Assembly: GCA_965220965.1 (NCBI GenBank)
Contig: OZ244852.1
Location: 1,248,001-1,312,000, forward strand
Direction of reading: 5' to 3'
DNA: 64,000 nucleotides
Origin: Candidatus Marinacidobacterium sp.
Lineage (GTDB): Bacteria > Acidobacteriota > Vicinamibacteria > Marinacidobacterales > Marinacidobacteraceae
The position numbers and the translations under genes are program-made. Positions within the stretch are counted from its first letter, which is position 1, and each line of letters begins with the position of its first letter. Below are positions 8,171 to 53,077 of the stretch, piece after piece. Below the pieces are notes generated by a model. It was not told the DNA's origin. It searched no databases and saw only the letters and a program-made list of their open reading frames with translations.

Positions 8171-9462
8171 TGGAACCGGAGGGCGTCGGTGACCACCAGC
8201 GAAGCCGCCCGCCGCGCCGGGTAGAGCGTGGCCGCGAAGCAGACGATCGGCGCGAAGAGGCAGACGAGCGCCAGATCCCCGGGCAGGAGGGTGAACGGCA
8301 CCGCGGTGATCTGGTAGACGTCCTCGGGGATCGTGATCCGACCGTCGAGGATCTCGCAGGCGAGGATCCCGAGGCCCGCGCCGAGGGCGGTGCCGGCGAG
8401 CCCGATGACCGCCCCCTGGGCCATGAAGAGCGCCATGACGCTCCGCCGGGTCGCGCCCATCGAGCGCAGCACCGCGATGTCCCGGGTCTTCTCGGTGACG
8501 GTCACGATCTGGCCCGCCACGATGTTGAGCGCCGCCACCCCCACGATGAAGCCCACGAACAGCGCGGTGGCCAGCTTCTCCAGCCAGAACGCCGAGAAGA
8601 GCGTCGTGTTCATGTCGATCCAGTTCAGGGCGGCGTAGCCGGGGCCGAGCGTCTCGCGGACCTCCGCCTCGAGTTCGCGCACGCCGAACATGTCCTCGAC
8701 GCGGGCCTCCACATGGCTCACCGCGCCCGCGTTCCCCGCGAGCCGCTGGGCCTCGCCCAGCGGGATGAGCGCCCAGCCGTTGTCGTAGTCGTAGAGCCCC
8801 AGCCGGAAGGACCCCGCGACCCGGAACCGGCGGCTCGCGGGGATGGCGCCGACCGGCGTCAGCCGCCCCTCCGGCACGACGAGCCGCACGGGATCGCCCA
8901 GCGTGACGCCGAGCGCCAGCGCCAGCTCCTCGCCGAGGACCACCGGCGGTGGTTCGCCCGAATGGTCGGCGCCGAGGTCCGCGAAGTCGCCCGAAGTCAT
9001 CCGGGAGGCGAACTCGCTGACCCGGGGCTCGCGTTCCGCGTCCACGCCCTTGAGGGTGACGAGCGCCGAGCGCCGCCCGAGCGCCAGCGCCTTGCCGTAG
9101 ACCACCGGAGCGGCGGCCTCGACGCCGGGGACCGCCTCGATCGTGGCGGTCACGTCGCGGTAATCGGTGAAGCCCTCCACCGAGAGGTCATAGACCGAAA
9201 GGTGCGCCAGCGCCCCCAGGATCCGGGCCCGGAGCTCTCCCTGGAAGCCGGTCATGATCGCGAGCGCGACGAGCAGGATCGCCACGCCGAGAACGACGCC
9301 CAGCGCCGAGATCGCGGAGATGACCGAGATGAACATCCCCTTCTGGCGCAGCATGAGGTAGCGCGCCGCGATCTGCAGCTCGAACGGAAGCGACCCGCCG
9401 AGGCCGGAGAGGAGGCGTCGGGGGCGCCGGTCTCCGCGTCGGGCGTCCGGGGCCTCGCTCAC
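8167..9462 (-). CDS. lolE: Lipoprotein-releasing ABC transporter permease LolC/E
   Basis: [10 protein letters not shown]...FISVIS...MTGFQ; [10 protein letters not shown]; TLYPARRAA; GTG start overlaps the lysS stop. Confidence 0.85.
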
Positions 9463-11009
9463 GACTCCTCCCGGGGCCGCAGGTGCGGGAACAGGATGAC
9501 GTCCCGGATCGCGGCCGAGTCGGTGAGGAGCATGGCGAGCCGGTCCACGCCGACGCCGACCCCGCCGGTGGGCGGCAGACCGTGGCGGAGCGCCTCGATG
9601 TAGTCGCGGTCCATGGCGTGTTCCTCGCCTCCCTGTCGCCGGGCGATCTGCTCGCCGAAGCGCGCCGCCTGCTCGTCCGGGTCGTTCAGCTCGGAGAACC
9701 CGTTCGCAATCTCGAGGCCACCGACGAACAGCTCGAACCGCTCGGTGAACCCGGGAACGTCGGGGTCCGCCTTGGAGAGCGGGGACACCTCGACCGGGTA
9801 GCCGGTCACGAATGTGGGCTGGATGAGGCTGCGCTCGCAGAGCGCCTCGAACAGGCTGAGCAGCAGCTTGCCCGGGCCCGCCGGCGGCGGGGGCGGAACG
9901 AGATCCAGCTCGCGGTGGAGCTCGGCGAGCCTCGCGGCGTCGCCCAGCTCTTCGGGCGCCAGGTCGAAACCGCGCTCCGCGAGCGCCCCGAGCGTCGCGC
10001 CCGAGAGCGTGGCCCGGGCGAAGGGCGGCTGGAAGGCGATCTCGTGCTCCCCGAACCGGACCGGACCCGCGCCCCGCACCTCCGCGGCGGCCGCCGCGAC
10101 CAGCCGCTCGGTGAGGTCCATCATGAAGGCGCAGTCGCTGAAGGCCCGGTAGAACTCGAGCATCGTGAACTCCGGGTTGTGCCGCGTCGACAGGCCCTCG
10201 TTCCGGAAGTTGCGGTTGATTTCGTAGACGCGGGGGAAGCCGCCCACCACGAGGCGCTTCAGGTAGAGCTCGGGGGCGACCCGCAGGAACAGGTCGATGC
10301 CGAGCGCCTGGTGGTGCGTCTGGAACGGGCGGGCCGCGGCGCCGGTCGCGAGCGGCTGGAGCATCGGCGTCTCGACCTCGAGGAAGCCCTCGCCGTCCAT
10401 GAACCGCCGCAGCGCGGCCACCAGGCGCGCCCGGCGGAGGAAGACCTCCCGGGTCGCCGGGTTGGAGAGCAGGTCGAGGTAGCGCTGGCGGTAGCGGGTG
10501 TCGCGGTCGGTCAGGCCGTGCCACTTCTCCGGAAGCGGAAGGAGCGCCTTGGAGAGGAACGTCACCCGGTCGGCGCGCACCGTGAGTTCGTCGGAGCGCG
10601 TCCGGAACACCGGCCCTTCCACCCCGATCCAGTCGCCGTGGTCCAGCAGGCGGGTGATCCGGAAGTCGCGTTCCGGGAGCACGTCCTTGCGAACGTGCGC
10701 CTGGAGCGTCCCCTGCCCCTCGGCGAGGCGCAGGAACGCGGCCTTGCCGAACGACCGGATGGCGGCGACGCGGCCCGCGACCCGGACCTCGCGGTCGGTC
10801 TCGGGCGACTCCTCGAGCGCCGCGCCGTCGAGCCCGCCGAACGCCGCATGGACCGCTTCGAGCGTGTGGCTCGCGTCGAAGCGGTTCGGCCACGCCGCAA
10901 CGCCGAGTTCGCGGATCTGCGCCAGCTTCTCCCGGCGGTTGGCCTCGTCGCGGCCGGGAGCGCTCGCGCCCGCCGGAGGTCGCCGACCGGCCGCGCCCTC
11001 GCCGGTCAC
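9459..11009 (-). CDS. lysS: Lysine--tRNA ligase (class II)
   Basis: LPEKWHGL, RYRQRYLDL, RVAPELYLKRL, FRNEG, GLPPTGGVGVGVDRL. Confidence 0.97.
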   Translation of the reverse strand: MTGEGAAGRRPPAGASAPGRDEANRREKLAQIRELGVAAWPNRFDASHTLEAVHAAFGGLDGAALEESPETDREVRVAGRVAAIRSFGKAAFLRLAEGQGTLQAHVRKDVLPERDFRITRLLDHGDWIGVEGPVFRTRSDELTVRADRVTFLSKALLPLPEKWHGLTDRDTRYRQRYLDLLSNPATREVFLRRARLVAALRRFMDGEGFLEVETPMLQPLATGAAARPFQTHHQALGIDLFLRVAPELYLKRLVVGGFPRVYEINRNFRNEGLSTRHNPEFTMLEFYRAFSDCAFMMDLTERLVAAAAAEVRGAGPVRFGEHEIAFQPPFARATLSGATLGALAERGFDLAPEELGDAARLAELHRELDLVPPPPPAGPGKLLLSLFEALCERSLIQPTFVTGYPVEVSPLSKADPDVPGFTERFELFVGGLEIANGFSELNDPDEQAARFGEQIARRQGGEEHAMDRDYIEALRHGLPPTGGVGVGVDRLAMLLTDSAAIRDVILFPHLRPREES

Positions 11010-23525: not shown

Positions 23526-23629
23526 GGAACCGCTTTCAAGCCGGCCGATTGTCAGCGCGGGCGCCAGGGGGCGCAAGCTCCGGCGCCGCGCCGGCCTGTT
23601 CCCGATACCGACCTGCGAGGAAGACGCCC

Positions 23630-24829
23630 ATGTCCCGCCCCCTCCCGAAACGAGCCGCTCATCCCGTCCTGGCGGTGGTCCCGATGCCCGCCCGGGCGCG
23701 CTGGCCCCGCAGCCAGCCCGACCCGCTCCCGGTTCCGATCACCGACCCGGAGCACGGGCGCCCGCTCCGGCCGGCGGCGGCGATCGCCTGCGAGGTCTCG
23801 GAAGACGGCATCGGAGGCGAGTTCGACACCGCCCGCGAGCGGATCCTCGAGTGGGTGGAGACCCGCACCGGTCCGCTCCCGGAGAGCTTCGCCGAACGCC
23901 GCCAGGAGAGCGCGACCTCACGGATGGCGCGTTTCGAGTGCGGCGGAGCCCGGGTGGAGGCCGTGGACCGGGCGCTGGGGCGCGGCCGGTACTTCGGACT
24001 CCTGCTCGAGAGCGGAAGCGCCCCCGAACAGCCCGTTTCGCGCGTCCGGGCGGCCATCTTCCGCTCGGGCGGCGGAACGCACCTGCGAATGACGCTCGAG
24101 GCGCCGCGGCGCTTCGCGGAGGGGCTCCGCCCGATGGCGTGGACGCCCCGCGTGGTCCACGACCTGATCGCCTCTCCCGGGCTCATCGACTACGGCTGGC
24201 GCATCGTGAACGAGCCCTGGGTGGTGGATGACGAGGAGAGCGTGGAGGGCCTGATCCACCTCATCGCCGATCCGGCGCGGACCCGGCCGGTCTTCGCGAC
24301 CGGGCTCAGCGGGGCGCAGACCGACCCGGAAGCGTGCAGCGTGGATCCCTGGGACCTCGCCCTGCGGACCGCCGGGCTCGCCCACGTGGTGGTGCTGACC
24401 GGACCGATGACCTACGTGCTCTCGGACCGGGTCGGCCGGCGCTTCAGCGTCTTCGGGGATGCGTTCCGCACCTACCGGCCGGGGCGCCGAATCCTCGAGG
24501 ACGCCCGCGCGCACCCGATCGCGCTTTCCGACACGGTGCGGGAGTGGCCCGACGGCGGACCACGGCGCTTCGCGCTCTATCTGGCGCGCGAGGCGGCGCG
24601 GATGAGCCTCGCCTGCCAGATGACGCGCTCGGGGTGGGGGATGGGCGACATGATCGGAGCGACCACCGGGATCCGCCTGGCCGATGTTTCCGTGACGCAG
24701 CGGGTCGAGCTCCCCGTCGAGGACGGCGGCCTGGACCATCCGGTCGGAACCGGGACCGACGCCGGCGAAGCGGCGGAACCGGCGCGCCTGCGAGCGGTCG
24801 CCGGAGCCAAGGCGCGGCCCGCCTCCTGA
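23630..24829 (+). CDS. Hypothetical protein (399 aa)
   Basis: Globular-looking composition, GAGGAAG RBS before ATG 23630, occupies the gap between rsmD and the AlbA_2 gene. Confidence 0.7.
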   Translation: MSRPLPKRAAHPVLAVVPMPARARWPRSQPDPLPVPITDPEHGRPLRPAAAIACEVSEDGIGGEFDTARERILEWVETRTGPLPESFAERRQESATSRMARFECGGARVEAVDRALGRGRYFGLLLESGSAPEQPVSRVRAAIFRSGGGTHLRMTLEAPRRFAEGLRPMAWTPRVVHDLIASPGLIDYGWRIVNEPWVVDDEESVEGLIHLIADPARTRPVFATGLSGAQTDPEACSVDPWDLALRTAGLAHVVVLTGPMTYVLSDRVGRRFSVFGDAFRTYRPGRRILEDARAHPIALSDTVREWPDGGPRRFALYLAREAARMSLACQMTRSGWGMGDMIGATTGIRLADVSVTQRVELPVEDGGLDHPVGTGTDAGEAAEPARLRAVAGAKARPAS

Positions 24830-24869: not shown

Positions 24870-26108
24870 CTACGGCGTCCCCGGACCCTTTTTCCACAGG
24901 CGGACGGTGAAGCGGCTCTCGTCCTCGACGAGCTCGGGCTCCGTCCCGTTGTGCGCCTTCATACCGGGGATCATCCGCTGGCGCACGCCCATCCCGCGAA
25001 ACTCCACGTAGCCGTAATCGCGCATGAAATTGACCAGGTTCTGGTTGCGCGCGTAACGGGTTCCCGAGCGCATCCCATCCGGCGTGACCGTGTTCGGCAG
25101 CCGCCCGGGGCTGACGACCTCGAGGCGGTCCGAGAAGATCGTCAGCATGATGTCGGCGCCGGTGATGCTGTAGTCGCGGTGAACCAGCGCGTTCCCCACC
25201 GCCTCTCGCACCACCGCTTCCGGGTAGTCCCAACGGTCGATGCGGCGACCCCCTTCCAGCCGGGCGGTCGGCGTGGTGTTCCGGCGCACGAAATCGATGG
25301 CCTGGTCCACGAGTCCCGGTTCGACCCGCGAGCCGTCGCGGGCGCCGAGCGGAACCATCGGGCCACGCAGGACTTCATCGGCCCGCGCCGCATAGTCCGG
25401 CGCCTTGCCCGGAAAGCAGATGGCGCGGATGCCCGATTGCGGAAGGAACCGCTTCGTGTTGCTCCCGAAAAGCAGCATCCCGTCGACGGTCGCCGCCGGG
25501 CGCTCCACGGCCGGGGTCGCGAGCTCCAGATTCACCAGCAGGTGGCGCCACGCGTCCGGATCGTCCTCTCCGGGCGCCTCGCCTCCGAGAACCCGGGTGA
25601 AATAGTCGCGGAGCCGTCGCTCGTCGAGCATCCCGATACCGGACCCGGGAACCGGTTTGCATCCGTACCGCAGCTGACCCGACGCCTGGTAGAGGCGTCC
25701 TTCCTCGTCGCGCGTCGCATCCCGCGTGGTCGTTCCGACCCGGACCCTGGTCAGCCAGGCGCCTCCGCGCTTCGCCTTGTAGGGCTTGTCAGGCGCGTCC
25801 GTCGGCAGCGAGACGACGCCGACGACCTTCCCGTCGTCCCAGAGGATCGTCTCCCACCAGGGATTCGTCGCCGGCTGGAGGTGAGTCCGGGCCGCCTCCA
25901 TGACCCATTCCTCGGCCTTGCGGCGATCGCGCGTGAGGCCACTGACCGTTCCGTCGTCCTCCACGCCGAGGAGGATGCGGCCACCCGCCAGGTTCAGGAA
26001 CCCGGCCATTTCCTCCGCGAGCTTCTGCGCCGAGATGTCGTCCCGCTTGAACTCCACACCCGAGCTCTCGCCATTGCGGAGCAGATCGATCAGTTCGGCC
26101 CTGGTCAT
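24870..26108 (-). CDS. Schlafen/AlbA_2 domain protein with HATPase_c_4 (RecG C-terminal-like) domain
   Basis: GESSGVEFK, FLNLAGG.ILLGVEDDG, REAVGNALVHRDYS, DRLEVVSPG, RNQNL, RGMGV. Confidence 0.85.
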   Translation of the reverse strand: MTRAELIDLLRNGESSGVEFKRDDISAQKLAEEMAGFLNLAGGRILLGVEDDGTVSGLTRDRRKAEEWVMEAARTHLQPATNPWWETILWDDGKVVGVVSLPTDAPDKPYKAKRGGAWLTRVRVGTTTRDATRDEEGRLYQASGQLRYGCKPVPGSGIGMLDERRLRDYFTRVLGGEAPGEDDPDAWRHLLVNLELATPAVERPAATVDGMLLFGSNTKRFLPQSGIRAICFPGKAPDYAARADEVLRGPMVPLGARDGSRVEPGLVDQAIDFVRRNTTPTARLEGGRRIDRWDYPEAVVREAVGNALVHRDYSITGADIMLTIFSDRLEVVSPGRLPNTVTPDGMRSGTRYARNQNLVNFMRDYGYVEFRGMGVRQRMIPGMKAHNGTEPELVEDESRFTVRLWKKGPGTP

Positions 26109-26260: not shown

Positions 26261-26503
26261 TCGCAGTCAGCGGCGCCCCAAACTGACAATCTGCCGAAGC
26301 TCGAATTGACAATCGGCCGACGAGTACACTGGCATTCAGCCGGAACCACTACTACTAGTCATGTTTATCATCAACTTATATGATCTCATAATGCCAGATA
26401 TGTGATCGGAAACACGATTCCTGACCCTCATTCGACCCCTATTCTGACAATCAGCCGGGCCCTATATTGACAATTGGCCGAAGCCTCAACCTACAATCAG
26501 CCG
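26261..26503 (+). repeat. Phased 23-bp-period direct-repeat array (core TGACAATCAGCCG), two blocks flanking an AT-rich core
   Basis: Cores at 26261, 26284, 26307, 26330 and 26422, 26445, 26468, 26491, all in a single 23-bp register. Confidence 0.85.
26467..26497 (+). promoter_or_regulatory. Putative sigma70 promoter (leaderless) for the AAA+/DUF4143 gene, embedded in the repeats
   Basis: TTGACA 26467-26472 and TACAAT 26492-26497 (long 19-bp spacer); ATG at 26504 with no RBS. Confidence 0.5.
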
Positions 26504-27856
26504 ATGCCGCACCCGTTTCTCTTCCGACGCCGCATCGAGCCGCGGCTGATGGAGGCGCTGGACGACTCGCCGGTGGTGCTGATTCACGGCCCGCGCCAGT
26601 GCGGCAAGACGACGCTCGCCCGCTACGCCTGCACCAGGGACCACCCCTGGGCGTCGGGCGACGCGCATCCACATGTCAACGACGGTGGGCGGGCTGGTTC
26701 GGGAGGGTCCGACGGGCGGCGCGACTACGCGTACATCAGTCTGGACGATGCGGTGGCGCGCGAAACCGCCCGGGCCGATCCCGCCGGCATGGTCGCCGAG
26801 CTGCCGGAGCGGGTCATCCTGGACGAGGTTCAGCGGGTCCCGGAGCTGTTCGAGGCGATCAAGCTGGAAGTGGATCGCCGGCGGGCGGCGGGCCGGTTTC
26901 TGCTCACCGGGTCCACGAACGTGCTGCTGATTCCGCGCCTTTCGGACTCGCTGGCCGGCCGCATGCAGATCGTGCGGCTCCATCCGCTCGCGCAGCGGGA
27001 GCTCACGGCTGAGGCGCCACCGGCCAATGTCGCGCAACAGCCGGAGTTCCTCGACGTTCTGTTCGGCGCCGCCTTCCGGGTGCGCCGAACCGCCCGCCTC
27101 GGTGGCGAGCTCCTCGAACGGATCGTCGCCGGCGGCTTTCCGCCGGCGCTGGCGAATCCGACGGACCGTCGCCGGGCCAACTGGCAACGCGACTACATGA
27201 CCACCCTGCTGGAGCGCGACGTGCGCGAGATGGCGCGGATAACGGCGCTCGATGCGCTTCCGAGGCTGCTTCAGGCGGCGGCGACGCAGACCGCGCGCCT
27301 GTTCAACCTGGCGGACCTTGCGGCGCCGTTCCGGGTCAGCCGGGGGACGATCGGCGGCTACGTCGCGCTGCTGGAGCGGCTGTTCCTGCTGGAACGGGTA
27401 CCGGCGTGGCACAGCAATCGCCTGCGGCGGCTCGTGAAGAGCCCCAGGCTGCACTTCGGCGACACCGGTCTGGCGGCGGCGCTGCTGGGGGCCGACGCGC
27501 CCGCGTTACGGGACGACGGAACGCTGCTGGGGCAGCTCCTGGAGACTTTCGTCTACCAGGAACTGCGGCGGCAGGCGAGCTGGCATGCGAGCGCCACCAA
27601 CTTCTTCCACTTCCGCGACCGTGACGGCGCGGAAGTCGACATCGTCATCGAACGGGGACACCGCGCGGTCGCGGGCGTGGAGGTCAAGGCCGGGGCCACG
27701 GTCAGGGCATCCGACTTTCGCGGGCTGAAGAAACTGGCCGCGGCCGCGGGAGATCGCTTCGCCTGCGGCGTCGTGCTCCACAACGGCGAGATGTGCGCGC
27801 GCTTCGGGGATCGCCTCTACGCCGCGCCCATTCGCACCCTGTGGGAGACGCCCTGA
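26504..27856 (+). CDS. AAA_14 ATPase with DUF4143 (PD-(D/E)xK-like) C-terminal domain
   Basis: Walker A GPRQCGKT, Walker B ILDEVQ, LTGS, SLAGR, GGFP, DTGL, C-terminal EVDIVIE...GVEVK. Confidence 0.9.
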   Translation: MPHPFLFRRRIEPRLMEALDDSPVVLIHGPRQCGKTTLARYACTRDHPWASGDAHPHVNDGGRAGSGGSDGRRDYAYISLDDAVARETARADPAGMVAELPERVILDEVQRVPELFEAIKLEVDRRRAAGRFLLTGSTNVLLIPRLSDSLAGRMQIVRLHPLAQRELTAEAPPANVAQQPEFLDVLFGAAFRVRRTARLGGELLERIVAGGFPPALANPTDRRRANWQRDYMTTLLERDVREMARITALDALPRLLQAAATQTARLFNLADLAAPFRVSRGTIGGYVALLERLFLLERVPAWHSNRLRRLVKSPRLHFGDTGLAAALLGADAPALRDDGTLLGQLLETFVYQELRRQASWHASATNFFHFRDRDGAEVDIVIERGHRAVAGVEVKAGATVRASDFRGLKKLAAAAGDRFACGVVLHNGEMCARFGDRLYAAPIRTLWETP

Positions 27857-27908: not shown

Positions 27909-28598
27909 TCAGGGTTTCGTCGCCACCGCCACCAGCAGCGGCGTGCGGCGCCAGGGCCAGGCGACCTCGAATCCGGCCGCCTGCAGGGCGTCGCGTTCCG
28001 CCTCCGCCGGAAAGTAAGTGTCCTCCTCGGCCCACTCGGCGAACAGCTCGTAGGCGCGGGCTTCGGGCGTCCCGCGGGCGGCCATCCACGCGGCCCACTC
28101 CTGGTAAGCGGCGGCCGAACCCTCAGGCTCGGCGGGGATGACCACATCCACGTTCACGAGGAGGCCGCCGGGACGCAGCGCTTCGTGGATCCGGCCGAAC
28201 AGGCGACGCTTGTCGTCGAGCGTGGGGACATGGTGCAGGGCGAGCGACGCCGTCACCGCATCGCACTCCGGCAACGGGTCATCGAACGACGCCTGGCGCA
28301 GCGCGGCGCGGTCGCCGAAGCGCGCCAGACGGCCGCGGGCCCGCCCGAGCATCTCCGGATCGGCGTCCACCAGCTCCACGACGGCGTCCCCGGCGCGGCG
28401 CAGGACCGCCTCGGAGAGCGCGCCGGTCCCCGCACCGAGGTCCACGACGCGCCGAGGCCGGACCGCGGCGATCGTCCGGGCGGCGGTCTCGAGAGCCTCC
28501 TCGTACCCGGGGATCCACTTCCGGATCGTGGCGTCGTACTCCTCGATCTCCACCCGCAGATGCCGGCGGACGGAGTGAGCGTCGGTCGAATGAGCCAC
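27909..28598 (-). CDS. Class I SAM-dependent methyltransferase
   Basis: VDLGAGTG, VDADPEML, ASLALHH, LRPGG; GTG start at 28598 inferred. Confidence 0.85.
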   Translation of the reverse strand: MAHSTDAHSVRRHLRVEIEEYDATIRKWIPGYEEALETAARTIAAVRPRRVVDLGAGTGALSEAVLRRAGDAVVELVDADPEMLGRARGRLARFGDRAALRQASFDDPLPECDAVTASLALHHVPTLDDKRRLFGRIHEALRPGGLLVNVDVVIPAEPEGSAAAYQEWAAWMAARGTPEARAYELFAEWAEEDTYFPAEAERDALQAAGFEVAWPWRRTPLLVAVATKP

Positions 28599-28615
28599 CG
28601 GCTGGAGGATAAGGG

Positions 28616-30775
28616 TTACCCGCCCTCCGTCAGGCCGAAGCGTTCCCCCCAGCGCTCGTGGACCTGCTCGAGGATGCGGCGGCCCTCGAGGCTGTCGGCT
28701 TCGGGCGACGCCAGAAAGTCCCGGGCCTCCCGGCGGGCGTCGCGGAGGATCTCCGCATCCTCGACCAGGTCGGCGACCCGGAAGGCGGGCAGGCCCCACT
28801 GCCGGGCGCCCCGGAAGTCCCCGGGCCCCCGGATCCGCAGGTCCTCCTCGGCGATCCGGAAGCCGTCAGTCGTCTTCTCGAGGATCGCGAGGCGCTGGCG
28901 GGCGGTGTCTCCGGGCTGGCTCCCGGTCACCAGGATCGCCGTCGCGGGATCCTCCCCCCGCCCGACCCGCCCGCGGAGCTGGTGGAGCTGGGCCAGCCCG
29001 AAGCGCTCGGCGTGCTCCACCACCATCACCGTGGCGTTCGGAACGTCGACGCCGACCTCGATGACCGTCGTGGCGACGAGAACGTCGAGGTTGCCAGCGA
29101 CGAAGTCGGCCATCACCCGCTCCCGCTCGCGCGACGGAAGGCGGCCGTGAACCAGACCCACCCGCAGGTCGCGGAAGACTCCTTCCGAGAGCTCGCGGTG
29201 TCGGGCCTCGACGCCGGGGCCCGGGAACCCCTCGGCCTCCTCGATCGACGGCCCGACGAGAAACGCCTGCCGGCCCCGCCGGACCTCACGCCGGATCAGC
29301 TCCGCCACCTCGGGGAAATCACGCTCGCTGTGGATCAGCGTCCGGACCGGCTGGCGGCCGGGGGGCAGCTCCCGCAGCTCCGACAGGTCGAGGTCCCCGT
29401 GGAGCGCCAGCGTGAGCGTGCGCGGGATGGGCGTCGCGGTCATCACGAGGAGATCCGCGCCCCCGCCCCGCTCGACGAGGGCGCGGCGCTGCGCCACGCC
29501 GAAACGGTGCTGCTCGTCGATGATGGCGAGGCCCAGGTCGTGGAACTTCGCCCCCTCCTGGATCAGCGCGTGAGTCCCCACGACGAACTGCGCCCGGCCG
29601 GTCTCGGCCGACCAGAGCGCGGCGCGGCGCTCGGCCGCCCCGAGCCCGGCGGTGAGGAGGACGACCCGGATCCGTTGCGGCGCAAGGAGCCGCTGGATCG
29701 TCCCGTAGTGCTGCTCCGCGAGCACCTCGGTGGGCGCCATGAGCGCCACCTGCGCGCCGTGGTGCATCACCATCATCCCGGCAATGACCGCGACGATCGT
29801 CTTCCCGGAGCCCACGTCGCCCTGGAGGAGCCGCCGCATCGTGAACTCCGAGCGGAACTCCTCGGCGATCGTGCGAAGCGCCTCCCCCTGCGAGCCGGTG
29901 AGCCGGAACGGGAGCATCGCGCGGACCCGGTCGCGCAACCGGTCGTCCACCGTGAAGGTGTGGGCGCCGGAGCGGCCCACCCGGTCCTGGCGGCGACGGA
30001 GCAGCAGCCCGAGGGCGAAGAGGAAGAACTCCTCGTAGATCAGCCGGCGATGGCCGGCGGAGCGGCGACGGCTCAGCTCGTCGAGCGGGACCTCTGGCGG
30101 CGGGAAATGGACCGCCCGGAGCGCCGCGAGACGGTCCGGAAGGCCGAGCCGGCGGACGAGCGACTCCGGGAGGAGCCCCGGTCCGGCGGCCTCCTCCGAC
30201 TGGAGCGCCCGGTGGAGGATCGTGCGGAACTGCCGGGGAGACAGCGGGCCGAGCCGTTCGTAGACCGGGACGACCCGGCCGGCGTGGGCGGTCGGCGGCC
30301 CTGGGGCCGCGGCCTCCGGCGCAGGGTCGGGCGCCTCGGCCTCCGCTCCGGACCCGGTCACGAGCTCGTAACGGGGGCTGCGGAACTCGGGCGCCGCAAA
30401 CGGGCCGGCGCGGCGGACCGTTCCGTAGAGCAGGACGCGCCGTCCGGGGAACAGCAGACGGGGCAGATGGAGCTGGTTGAACCAGGTCGCGCGGACCGGA
30501 CCGGAGGCGTCGCGGCCCCGCAGCTCCACGATCTTCAGCCGCGGACGGCGCGTGGGACGGACCTGGATCGACTCGATCACGACCTCGACCGCGCCCTCCT
30601 TCCCGTCCTCGAGCGCCGTCGCCTGCTGCTCCCCGCTGCGGTCCTCGTAGCGGAACGGGAGCCGCAGGAGGAGGTCACTGACCCGCCGGATCCCGACCTC
30701 GGCGAGCGCCTCGGCGCGCTGCGGCCCGATCCCCTTGAGAAAGCGGACCTCGGTGTCCGCCCGGAGATCCGTCAC
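28616..30775 (-). CDS. recG: ATP-dependent DNA helicase RecG
   Basis: LQGDVGSGKT, DEQHRFGV, MTATPIPRT, QLHQLRGRVGRG. Confidence 0.97.
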   Translation of the reverse strand: MTDLRADTEVRFLKGIGPQRAEALAEVGIRRVSDLLLRLPFRYEDRSGEQQATALEDGKEGAVEVVIESIQVRPTRRPRLKIVELRGRDASGPVRATWFNQLHLPRLLFPGRRVLLYGTVRRAGPFAAPEFRSPRYELVTGSGAEAEAPDPAPEAAAPGPPTAHAGRVVPVYERLGPLSPRQFRTILHRALQSEEAAGPGLLPESLVRRLGLPDRLAALRAVHFPPPEVPLDELSRRRSAGHRRLIYEEFFLFALGLLLRRRQDRVGRSGAHTFTVDDRLRDRVRAMLPFRLTGSQGEALRTIAEEFRSEFTMRRLLQGDVGSGKTIVAVIAGMMVMHHGAQVALMAPTEVLAEQHYGTIQRLLAPQRIRVVLLTAGLGAAERRAALWSAETGRAQFVVGTHALIQEGAKFHDLGLAIIDEQHRFGVAQRRALVERGGGADLLVMTATPIPRTLTLALHGDLDLSELRELPPGRQPVRTLIHSERDFPEVAELIRREVRRGRQAFLVGPSIEEAEGFPGPGVEARHRELSEGVFRDLRVGLVHGRLPSRERERVMADFVAGNLDVLVATTVIEVGVDVPNATVMVVEHAERFGLAQLHQLRGRVGRGEDPATAILVTGSQPGDTARQRLAILEKTTDGFRIAEEDLRIRGPGDFRGARQWGLPAFRVADLVEDAEILRDARREARDFLASPEADSLEGRRILEQVHERWGERFGLTEGG

Positions 30776-52594: not shown

Positions 52595-53077
52595 ATGCCA
52601 ACAGCATCACTCGACGACTTTCTCCCGGCGGAGACAGAAGCGCCCGCCCTGGGCCCGATCGCGAGCGACCTCGTCGGCGGCGCCGGCGCGGACTACCTCT
52701 CGCCCGAATATCGGGCCATGGGCAGGCGCAACCGGCGCCTGGCGCTGGAATGCCTCGAAAGGGGCGACCATCGCCAGGCCCCCGAGAAGGCCTGGGCGGC
52801 CTTCGCGCAGGCCGTCAAGATCGCCAGCGCCGGGCGGGGAATCCCCGCGAGGCTCCACACTCCGATCGTGAGCGTCGCGCAGGCATTCACCGAGTTGGCG
52901 AGCGATGTGGACCCGTGCGCATCGGAGCGCCTCCAGCATGGGCTGACCACGGCCCGGAGCCTCCATATGCATCTCCGCGAGAACGATCTGTCGCCGGGGC
53001 TGGTGGCGTCCCATGTCGCCGAGGTGCTCGAGGCGCTGGACGTGCTGGATGCGATGACGGGGTCGAACCCCGCCTGA
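52595..53077 (+). CDS. PaREP1/HEPN-like protein (degenerate)
   Basis: QAPEKAWAA...AVK and ARSLHMHLREN resemble the PaREP1 pattern QASEK.W / LH.NFYE. Confidence 0.6.
   Translation: MPTASLDDFLPAETEAPALGPIASDLVGGAGADYLSPEYRAMGRRNRRLALECLERGDHRQAPEKAWAAFAQAVKIASAGRGIPARLHTPIVSVAQAFTELASDVDPCASERLQHGLTTARSLHMHLRENDLSPGLVASHVAEVLEALDVLDAMTGSNPA

Follow-up and report, generated by a model that had tools for sequence, protein, structure and literature searches.

The window analysed here, 64,000 nucleotides of contig OZ244852.1 from a Candidatus Marinacidobacterium sp. genome (positions 1,248,001 to 1,312,000 of the forward strand), contains an array of direct repeats directly in front of a gene for an ATPase-nuclease protein with AAA_14 and DUF4143 domains (Table 1). 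The array comprises eight units, each with a 13-bp core, TGACAATCNGCCG, and a 10-bp linker, and between 26261 and 26503 all of them lie in one 23-bp register (phase 0 modulo 23). Six units are strong; the two weak ones, at 26261 and 26422, are degenerate and form the distal-most unit of each half-array. The half-arrays are separated by an AT-rich gap of exactly 69 bp (3 x 23), in which 24 of the 69 bases are G or C (34.8%, against 71.6% G+C for the window), and the ATG at 26504 follows the last core, which ends at 26503, without a gap. A preliminary description of this DNA had claimed these eight unit starts and their single phase, the 69-bp AT-rich gap and the placement of the last unit directly before the ATG, and all were found as described.

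Between 26000 and 26600, eleven sites match the core with up to four mismatches, of which nine are in phase 0 (the ninth, at 26560, lies within the gene) and two are out of phase (26135 and 26209). On both strands of the 64-kb window outside the array, sites with up to two mismatches were found at 23542 on the minus strand (none), 63139 (one), and 1166, 8436 and 45554 (two each). As six in-phase sites fall inside 243 bp and such sites are rare elsewhere in the window, the cluster is far beyond chance. A repeat search grouped four 57-nt copies at this location (family D1, with spacings of 23, 138 and 23), and Tandem Repeats Finder at a score of 30 did not report the array, because only 13 of 23 positions are kept and the units diverge too far outside the core.

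Table 1 Features of the array, the ATPase-nuclease gene and the adjoining genes. Positions are those of the window; core mismatches are counted against TGACAATCNGCCG and listed in unit order.
Feature	Position	Strand	Basis or detail
Solo exact core copy TGACAATCGGCCG	23542..23554	-	0 mismatches; intergenic region of rsmD and the HEC-07-like gene
Gene without Pfam domain, match to PADLOC candidate HEC-07 (1.7e-40)	23630..24829	+	PADLOC
Schlafen/AlbA_2 + HATPase_c_4 gene, divergent from the array	24870..26108	-	Pfam
Distal half-array, four 23-bp units, cores at 26261 (degenerate), 26284, 26307 and 26330	26261..26352	+	Mismatches 4, 0, 0, 2; phase 0
AT-rich gap with two sigma-70-like matches	26353..26421	+	34.8% G+C; promoter consensus scan
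Proximal half-array, four units, cores at 26422 (degenerate), 26445, 26468 and 26491	26422..26503	+	Mismatches 4, 0, 1, 2; phase 0
Putative proximal promoter	26467..26497	+	TTGACA (26467-26472), 19-nt spacer, TACAAT (26492-26497), then CAGCCG and ATG
AAA_14 + DUF4143 gene, 450 aa, PADLOC candidate PDC-S01	26504..27856	+	Pfam, PADLOC, AlphaFold2 model, Foldseek
Predicted winged helix-turn-helix, residues 251-318	27254..27457	+	Secondary-structure order in the model
Nuclease motif D379, E393, K395 (EVD ... EVK)	27638..27688	+	Conservation in homologues
Methyltransferase gene	27909..28799

A scan of species-representative genomes with the single protein gave no near-identical relative. A second scan, conducted with an alignment of 49 close homologues, identified 80 loci at 43-70% identity, in Acidobacteriota, Chloroflexota, Gemmatimonadota, Nitrospirota, Pseudomonadota, Planctomycetota, Bacteroidota, Spirochaetota and candidate phyla. 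Self-similarity was then scored over the 450 nt upstream of the gene at lags of 8-60, as identity over 69 nt, in the 73 loci whose upstream sequence extends to 300 nt or more. Self-similarity was highest at lag 22 or 23 in 57/73 loci and identity was at least 0.55 in 54, while four of the 16 loci that did not peak at 22/23 peaked at 44 or 46. Lag 23 was still shown by five of the seven loci set aside for their short upstream sequence. Among controls taken 3 and 6 kb away in the same loci, 6/242 peaked at 22/23 and none reached 0.55. This upstream autocorrelation in homologues, a check that the preliminary description had proposed, strongly supports its claim of a fixed-period array functionally tied to the AAA_14/DUF4143 gene.

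Arrays inspected in register have 3-8 units with a consensus of approximately nnnnnnAAaCTTgCAATCAGCCG. A 17-nt position weight matrix (PWM) built from 123 units was scanned along both strands of the 80 loci and the window (1.368 Mb) and gave 351 matches, 266 of them on the gene strand within 400 nt upstream of the 81 genes; the 85 found elsewhere compare with 71 in shuffled sequence. Unit ends cluster at -1, -24, -47, -70, -93 and -116 from the start codon, and the 189 spacings between neighbouring units are dominated by 23 bp (150 cases), with 22 bp in 15, 24 bp in none, 46 bp in six, 69 bp in five and larger values in the rest. At least two units were found in 71/81 sources (two in 15, three in 20, four in 23, five in six, six in four and eight in three), one unit in six and none in four. 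The matrix is biased towards the commonest core, and thus scored zero in L059 and L075 despite their clear arrays.

All-against-all blastn showed that similarity between loci from unrelated genomes begins at about -60/-90 and does not extend past the stop codon, as seen over -82..1340 in L007/L008, -61..1264 in L013/L019 and -83..1243 in L029/L040. Since unrelated genomes align over that span only, array and gene constitute a conserved and evidently transferred unit. This cassette resides in chromosomes and in large plasmids that are typed with replicons of their own. A blastn search of the window's intergenic region against plasmids returned short chance matches only, and the array of L011 had no match in the phage collection and a single 21-nt match at E = 1 among plasmids.

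The protein encoded downstream of the array combines an AAA_14 domain (PF13173, residues 22-167; 2.1e-23, 83.1 bits against a gathering cut-off of 27) with a C-terminal DUF4143 domain (PF13635, residues 237-397; 3.7e-45, 154 bits against a cut-off of 28.1). Its Walker A P-loop reads GPRQCGKTT (residues 29-37), and the three residues of the nuclease motif do not vary among the 49 close homologues, while their conservation among 123 diverse homologues is at least 90%. The PADLOC model PDLC04790, for the candidate PDC-S01, matches with E = 5.7e-154, as do six weaker PDC-S01 models. No match was found in NCBIfam or, by sequence, among solved structures, and Pfam yielded the two domains named above only, with no known replication-initiator family. 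Related clusters number 20,653 among 50%-identity representatives, and the closest relatives of the window protein (P0002-P0010) are 73-76% identical to it. As the preliminary description had noted, the family has no established function; it is listed as an unvalidated candidate defence gene, PDC-S01.

Structural features were taken from an AlphaFold2 model computed with the alignment of 123 diverse homologues (predicted local distance difference test (pLDDT) 91.7, predicted template modelling score 0.92). An earlier model from 49 close sequences had a pLDDT of 65, and neither that model nor its fold search was relied on. The model comprises a P-loop ATPase core, a helical region, a putative winged helix-turn-helix (helices 251-261, 269-276 and 280-292; strands 296-299 and 315-318) and a C-terminal alpha/beta domain of PD-(D/E)xK type. 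The predicted recognition helix, residues 280-292, is RGTIGGYVALLER, in which residue 281 is Gly (codon at 27344). The nearest Foldseek matches are the archaeal AAA+ ATPases PAB2304 (2qen) and SSO1545 (2fna), with template modelling (TM) scores of 0.50-0.51 relative to the target; further matches include Apaf-1/CED-4 and Orc1/Cdc6 on origin DNA (2qby, 2v1u, 1w5t; whole-chain TM scores of 0.25-0.35), and the nuclease part has a fold like that of Can2/Cdn1. A two-copy complex prediction for the protein scored 0.20 against a mark of 0.42. The model also shows a glycine- and charge-rich insert after Walker A (residues ~45-72), which is disordered (pLDDT <50 at 53-69) and which most relatives seem to lack, as their alignments mostly begin near residue 72 and run in two stretches.

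Cores differ at 1.68 of 13 positions within an array and at 3.42 between arrays, and linkers at 4.76 of 10 positions within and 6.4 between arrays. These values fit selection to match a reader specific to each locus. As had been claimed, the 10-bp parts of the units do differ; they are not free spacers, however, and share a weak consensus across the family, A-rich at unit positions 7-8 and with C at position 10. Variation of the core was also seen to follow the encoded protein. Residue 281, the second residue of the predicted recognition helix, tracks core bases 2-3: Pro281 goes with T at core position 2 (TTT, TTG or TTA) in 56/56 loci with a scorable array, and 13 of the 20 non-Pro loci have a base other than T at that position. 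GA cores (TGA or CGA) occur with Gly (the window, TGA), Asn (L053, L056, L059, L061, L064 and L073) or Gln (L076), and cores with A at position 2 (TA-) occur with Leu (L010, L066 and L069) or Gln (L054). On a maximum-likelihood tree, GA-type cores arise in at least four places, and the clade that includes the window (99% support) otherwise consists of eight loci with T-type cores, of which L011 has Thr and the remaining seven have Pro. The covariation of residue 281 with core bases 2-3 is suggestive of recognition of the core by the predicted helix.

The unit closest to the gene differs from the others in a manner that points to a promoter. Of the 40 PWM matches directly adjoining the start codon, core position 3 is A in 35 and the sequence TAnnnT is present in 33 (TACAAT in 21, TACGAT in 10), while TAnnnT occurs in 17/226 inner units. 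The TACAAT-type box of the last unit is followed by 6 nt and then the ATG, in the window as in other loci, and the penultimate unit supplies a TTGCAA or TTGACA hexamer ~18 nt upstream. Because a -10-type unit followed by 6 nt to the ATG leaves no room for a ribosome-binding site, the mRNA of the gene is probably leaderless, with its predicted promoter in the last two units. The AT-rich gap of the window contains two further promoter-like sites on the plus strand, TAGTCA-17-TATGAT (26356-26384) and TTATCA-16-CATAAT (26365-26392), compared with 0.2 expected in shuffles, and may hold a second, upstream promoter.

The gap as such was rejected as a conserved element: it has no similarity to any of the fetched loci and contains no open reading frame. 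Among the arrays inspected in full, AT-rich gaps were seen in five only (the window, L025, L053, L064 and L073), and those of L053, L064 and L073 break the 23-bp register, with recorded spacings that include 87 and 65. In L064 and L073 the gap, ~70-120 nt upstream of the gene, is conserved between the two genomes and carries a 7-bp inverted repeat, TTATAAC ... GTTATAA; L025 has GTTATATAAC at the equivalent position. These sequences may be a site for a second factor. In L056, the region ~9460-9900 (gene at 10001) contains a 69-bp higher-order repeat of three 23-bp unit types, with cores CTGACGGACTGCCG, CTGACAGGCAGCCG and CTGACAATCAGCCG, repeated at least four times; its period equals the length of the window's AT-rich gap.

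Taken together, these observations favour, at somewhat better than even strength, the idea that the array is an operator combined with the gene's own promoter, to which the encoded protein would bind head-to-tail and so repress its own synthesis. The units overlap the predicted -35, -10 and start region of the gene, as an operator would. In such an arrangement, the winged helix would recognise the 13-bp core, with residue 281 contacting core bases 2-3, and one protomer would occupy each 23-bp unit, so that the fixed spacing would represent the pitch of an AAA+ oligomer; head-to-tail binding is suggested by the direct repeats and by the assemblies that AAA+ proteins form. The bound oligomer would cover the -35 and -10 boxes and shut the leaderless promoter, and the level of a potentially toxic nuclease would thereby stay low until something draws the protein away. 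Of the three mechanisms put forward in the preliminary description, autorepression by a protein that oligomerises on the boxes fits best, since the last unit also serves as the -10 box of the probably leaderless promoter.

Several points weigh against autoregulation by the encoded protein. All function is inferred from sequence. Three to eight operators exceed the need of simple repression, and autoregulation alone does not explain four orphan arrays found downstream of genes or the solo core at rsmD (both described below). Seven non-Pro loci keep a T-type core, and independent pairs on well-supported branches number three, all as expected (sign test, p = 0.25); since array and gene are physically linked, some correlation between residue and core arises from shared ancestry alone. 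Covariation of the core with the protein, as seen between core bases 2-3 and residue 281, is therefore suggestive rather than proven. No significant helix-turn-helix family was found for residues 235-330 in Pfam (E up to 10) or the protein Atlas, where the leads were HTH_5, HTH_IclR and DUF234 clusters, all with scores below 0.9, and the putative winged helix is so labelled from secondary-structure order and whole-protein fold matches. In the window itself, the -35/-10 spacer of 19 nt is above the optimum and the consensus scan does not include the 26467..26497 site; given this spacer and the scan matches in the AT-rich gap, the leaderless promoter may not be the main one there.

Alternatively, the array could serve as a nucleoprotein platform on which the ATPase-nuclease is stored or activated as a filament for sensing, melting or loading, with any effect on transcription secondary. 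Up to eight units with a pitch stricter than their sequence, an intact nuclease motif, AT-rich gaps in the five arrays named above and a fold like that of Orc1/Cdc6 and STAND NTPases, which work as DNA-bound or ligand-triggered oligomers, are all consistent with this. Most arrays, however, have only 2-4 units and no AT-rich gap, and the array always overlaps the gene's predicted promoter, an overlap that regulation explains without extra assumptions, so that we regard a platform as unlikely. For the origin-like melting or sensing platform of the preliminary description, the Orc1/Cdc6-type fold speaks in favour and the rarity of the gap against. More doubtful again is the bolder proposal of a self-contained mobile module crossing phyla, in which a DNA-bound Orc1/Cdc6-like filament would be the working machine and self-repression a by-product; the filament, with its own nuclease and built head-to-tail on an iteron-like track, might provide a place for origin-like melting or loading, or might stand guard as a surveillance complex that fires when disturbed by foreign DNA or another trigger. 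Direct repeats of 22-23 bp beside an AT-rich stretch and an AAA+/winged-helix gene are typical of iteron plasmids and archaeal origins, and array and gene could accordingly be pictured as an integrated minimal selfish replicon, with an iteron-type origin and a Rep/Orc-like initiator. The period of about two helical turns (the spacings of 23 and 22 bp given above), the movement of array and gene between phyla as a unit and the Orc1/Cdc6-DNA complexes among the fold matches suit this picture; the few AT-rich gaps, a C-terminal nuclease foreign to known initiators, the presence of the cassette in chromosomes and in plasmids with typed replicons of their own, the lack of Rep, partition or recombinase genes nearby in the window and the lack of the array in the phage and plasmid collections make it very improbable.

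The boxes might instead be a portable promoter of stacked -35/-10-like elements, recognised by RNA polymerase alone or by a host factor and not bound by the encoded protein. Inner units do hold TTGCAA/TTGACA-like hexamers, 23 bp corresponds to a hexamer plus a 17-nt spacer, and the last unit is -10-like. The conserved core nevertheless runs 6-7 bp past the hexamer (..TCAGCCG), inner units mostly lack the A at hexamer position 2, the core variants follow a residue of the encoded protein, and the same core occurs in hosts of 33% to 71% G+C, from Bacteroidota to Chloroflexota, in which no single factor would be expected; we therefore consider this quite improbable. Because the ends of Tn7 and Mu bear multiple 22-bp sites, the units could also be transposase or recombinase sites at the end of a transposon or integrative element, and the wide horizontal spread of the gene and the orphan arrays that flank it in L002, L042, L043 and L067 would agree with that. 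No inverted array was found near any of the 81 genes (five weak single minus-strand matches lie within -1500..+3500), and no transposase or integrase gene in the window. Flanking direct repeats were examined as possible insertion marks and rejected, being array relics (L002, L042 and L043), repeated coding sequence (L005 and L015) or host repeats (L079), and no target-site duplication was seen in those inspected; a transposon end is accordingly highly improbable. It is scarcely credible that the array is transcribed and processed into short repeat-spacer RNAs guiding the nuclease, as the preliminary description had offered for its third mechanism. The layout of repeat and variable part invites the idea, and the gap promoters predicted in the window would transcribe the proximal half-array. 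At most loci, however, the predicted promoter lies inside the last two units, so that the array is upstream of the inferred transcript and would not be transcribed; Rfam gave no match (E up to 1), and folding was no better than in shuffles (z = 0.17). A 13-bp core with a 10-bp, partly conserved linker also differs from the ~23-50 bp repeats with unique spacers of similar length that define CRISPR arrays, the variable parts were not found in the phage and plasmid collections, and no cas-type Pfam domains occur among the window open reading frames scanned.

Autoregulation through an array of direct repeats has parallels in known systems. Iterons of theta plasmids are direct repeats of ~22 bp that are bound by the product of the adjacent gene and overlap or adjoin the autoregulated rep promoter; the window resembles them in the similar period, the promoter overlap and the AT-rich stretch alongside, and differs in that the protein is an AAA+ ATPase-nuclease rather than a known Rep, most arrays have no AT-rich element and the locus is chromosomal. 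In the parC/ParR system of plasmid R1, two blocks of direct repeats flank a core with the operon promoter, and cooperative coating represses it. The window's layout of four units, 69 bp and four units, with promoter-like sites in the gap, is reminiscent of parC; there, however, the period is 11 bp, the binder is a ribbon-helix-helix protein and the function is partition, whereas here the period is 23 bp and the protein combines AAA+, predicted winged-helix and nuclease parts. Archaeal Orc1/Cdc6 proteins share the order of AAA+ followed by winged helix and a gene beside its predicted sites, and in the window an AT-rich stretch likewise separates the repeat blocks. Archaeal origin boxes flank the unwinding element in inverted orientation, whereas the window units are all direct; Orc1/Cdc6 also has no extra C-terminal nuclease, and the TM scores reach only 0.25-0.35. 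PAB2304 and SSO1545 share P-loop ATPase, helical and winged-helix domains with the window protein and have no DUF4143 nuclease domain; to our knowledge, their function is likewise not known.

Beyond these loci, plasmid-borne relatives (~34-46% identity) keep the 22/23-bp period with other cores, namely TTTAAAATaGACGG (Rhizobiales), CTTTCAATTGGTCA, TTCCAATTACCG and GCAAATGGTGG. The top lag was 22/23 in 7/9 such loci fetched; two units could be recognised only by eye in L081, and none were found in the Thermus locus L087. Paralogues inside the fetched loci were also inspected. The array is present in front of L058 (52% identity), and no 23-bp array was found at eight others (24-37% identity). 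Five of these eight (L004, L015, L021, L033 and L079; 24-33% identity) have a short palindrome, detected by eye, within ~45 nt upstream of the start codon; examples are TTATCATGATAA (L015) and TGAATGATAATCATTCA (L033). Other branches of the family may therefore use dimer-type operators. Operator-like sequence at the promoter would then be a general trait of the family, which this clade would have made into a direct-repeat array whose pitch is kept better than its sequence.

Orphan arrays of 2-4 units on the gene strand were observed downstream of the gene, with no paralogue after them, at (relative to the gene start) +1372..1414 in L002, +1460..1546 in L042, +1330..1410 in L043 and +3655..3711 in L067. 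The L002 orphan shares 37 identical nt with the upstream array, and the L067 orphan keeps an ATG followed by a short truncated frame. These orphan arrays look like remnants of lost tandem cassettes. The exact core copy in the window, TGACAATCGGCCG, lies 16 nt upstream of the rsmD ATG (23525-23523, minus strand), 2.7 kb from the array and in the opposite orientation; the chance of an exact core match in the window is ~0.005 by a composition-based estimate. This copy may have been left behind by an older cassette, or it may be an additional operator that ties rsmD/coaD or the divergent HEC-07-like gene to the ATPase-nuclease protein.

The array and its gene belong to a small island between rsmD and recG, in an otherwise chromosomal housekeeping context typical of a Gram-negative organism. 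The order is coaD and rsmD (minus strand), the HEC-07-like gene, the AlbA_2 gene, the array with the ATPase gene, the methyltransferase gene, recG and miaA. The HEC-07-like and Schlafen/AlbA_2 genes are two more defence-type genes adjoining the array. The divergent AlbA_2/HATPase_c_4 gene was considered as a part of the system and rejected, as a homologue lies within 10 kb in 3/80 loci. Pfam scans of the window revealed no integrase, transposase, Rep, partition, recombinase or cas genes, and the window contains no tRNA genes. At 52595-53077 (plus strand), a 160-aa open reading frame matches PaREP1/PaREP8 (2.4e-09), a family that is archaeal according to Pfam, in a neighbourhood that is otherwise bacterial.

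In the accessible text of the published descriptions, PDC-S01 is an ATPase fused to a PD-(D/E)xK domain, is frequently transferred between domains and ranks as the fourth most common defence candidate in prokaryotes (PMC12988326), and one representative was challenged in E. coli B with T7, T5 and T4, where protection came from four other candidates (10.1101/2024.09.26.614923). The window gene shares the PDLC04790 match and both Pfam domains with this candidate, and a role in defence is likewise a candidate role. Architecture, abundance and transfer of the family are described in several sources (PMC3424549, PMC12988326, PMC13356809, 10.1101/2024.09.26.614923, 10.1101/2024.01.29.577857 and 10.64898/2026.10.19.760177). 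The literature covered for DUF4143, COG1373, PDC-S01, PF13635 and PF13173, outside which fall subscription journals and supplements, contains no mention of upstream repeats, DNA-sequence specificity or autoregulation; within that coverage, the window locus differs from PDC-S01 as described in its array and in its predicted sequence-specific winged helix and autoregulation. What would be new is an iteron-like array of autoregulatory operators in front of a gene that is very abundant and whose function is not established.

Few unexplained genes are as frequent in bacterial and archaeal genomes as those of the AAA_14/DUF4143 family (COG1373, PDC-S01), and a strictly spaced element that travels with the gene would provide the first concrete handle on the target of the protein. 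Autoregulation as proposed here predicts that the protein recognises a 13-bp sequence, contacts it through a specific residue, binds as one protomer per 23 bp and controls its own synthesis from a leaderless promoter, and would be relevant to anyone expressing such genes from a 'native promoter'. A promoter-operator-gene cassette that works from Bacteroidota to Chloroflexota would also bear on how single-gene defence or selfish modules spread. If the DNA-bound filament were instead the working form of the protein, this abundant defence candidate would operate through sequence-specific assembly on DNA, for which no described defence system offers a precedent.

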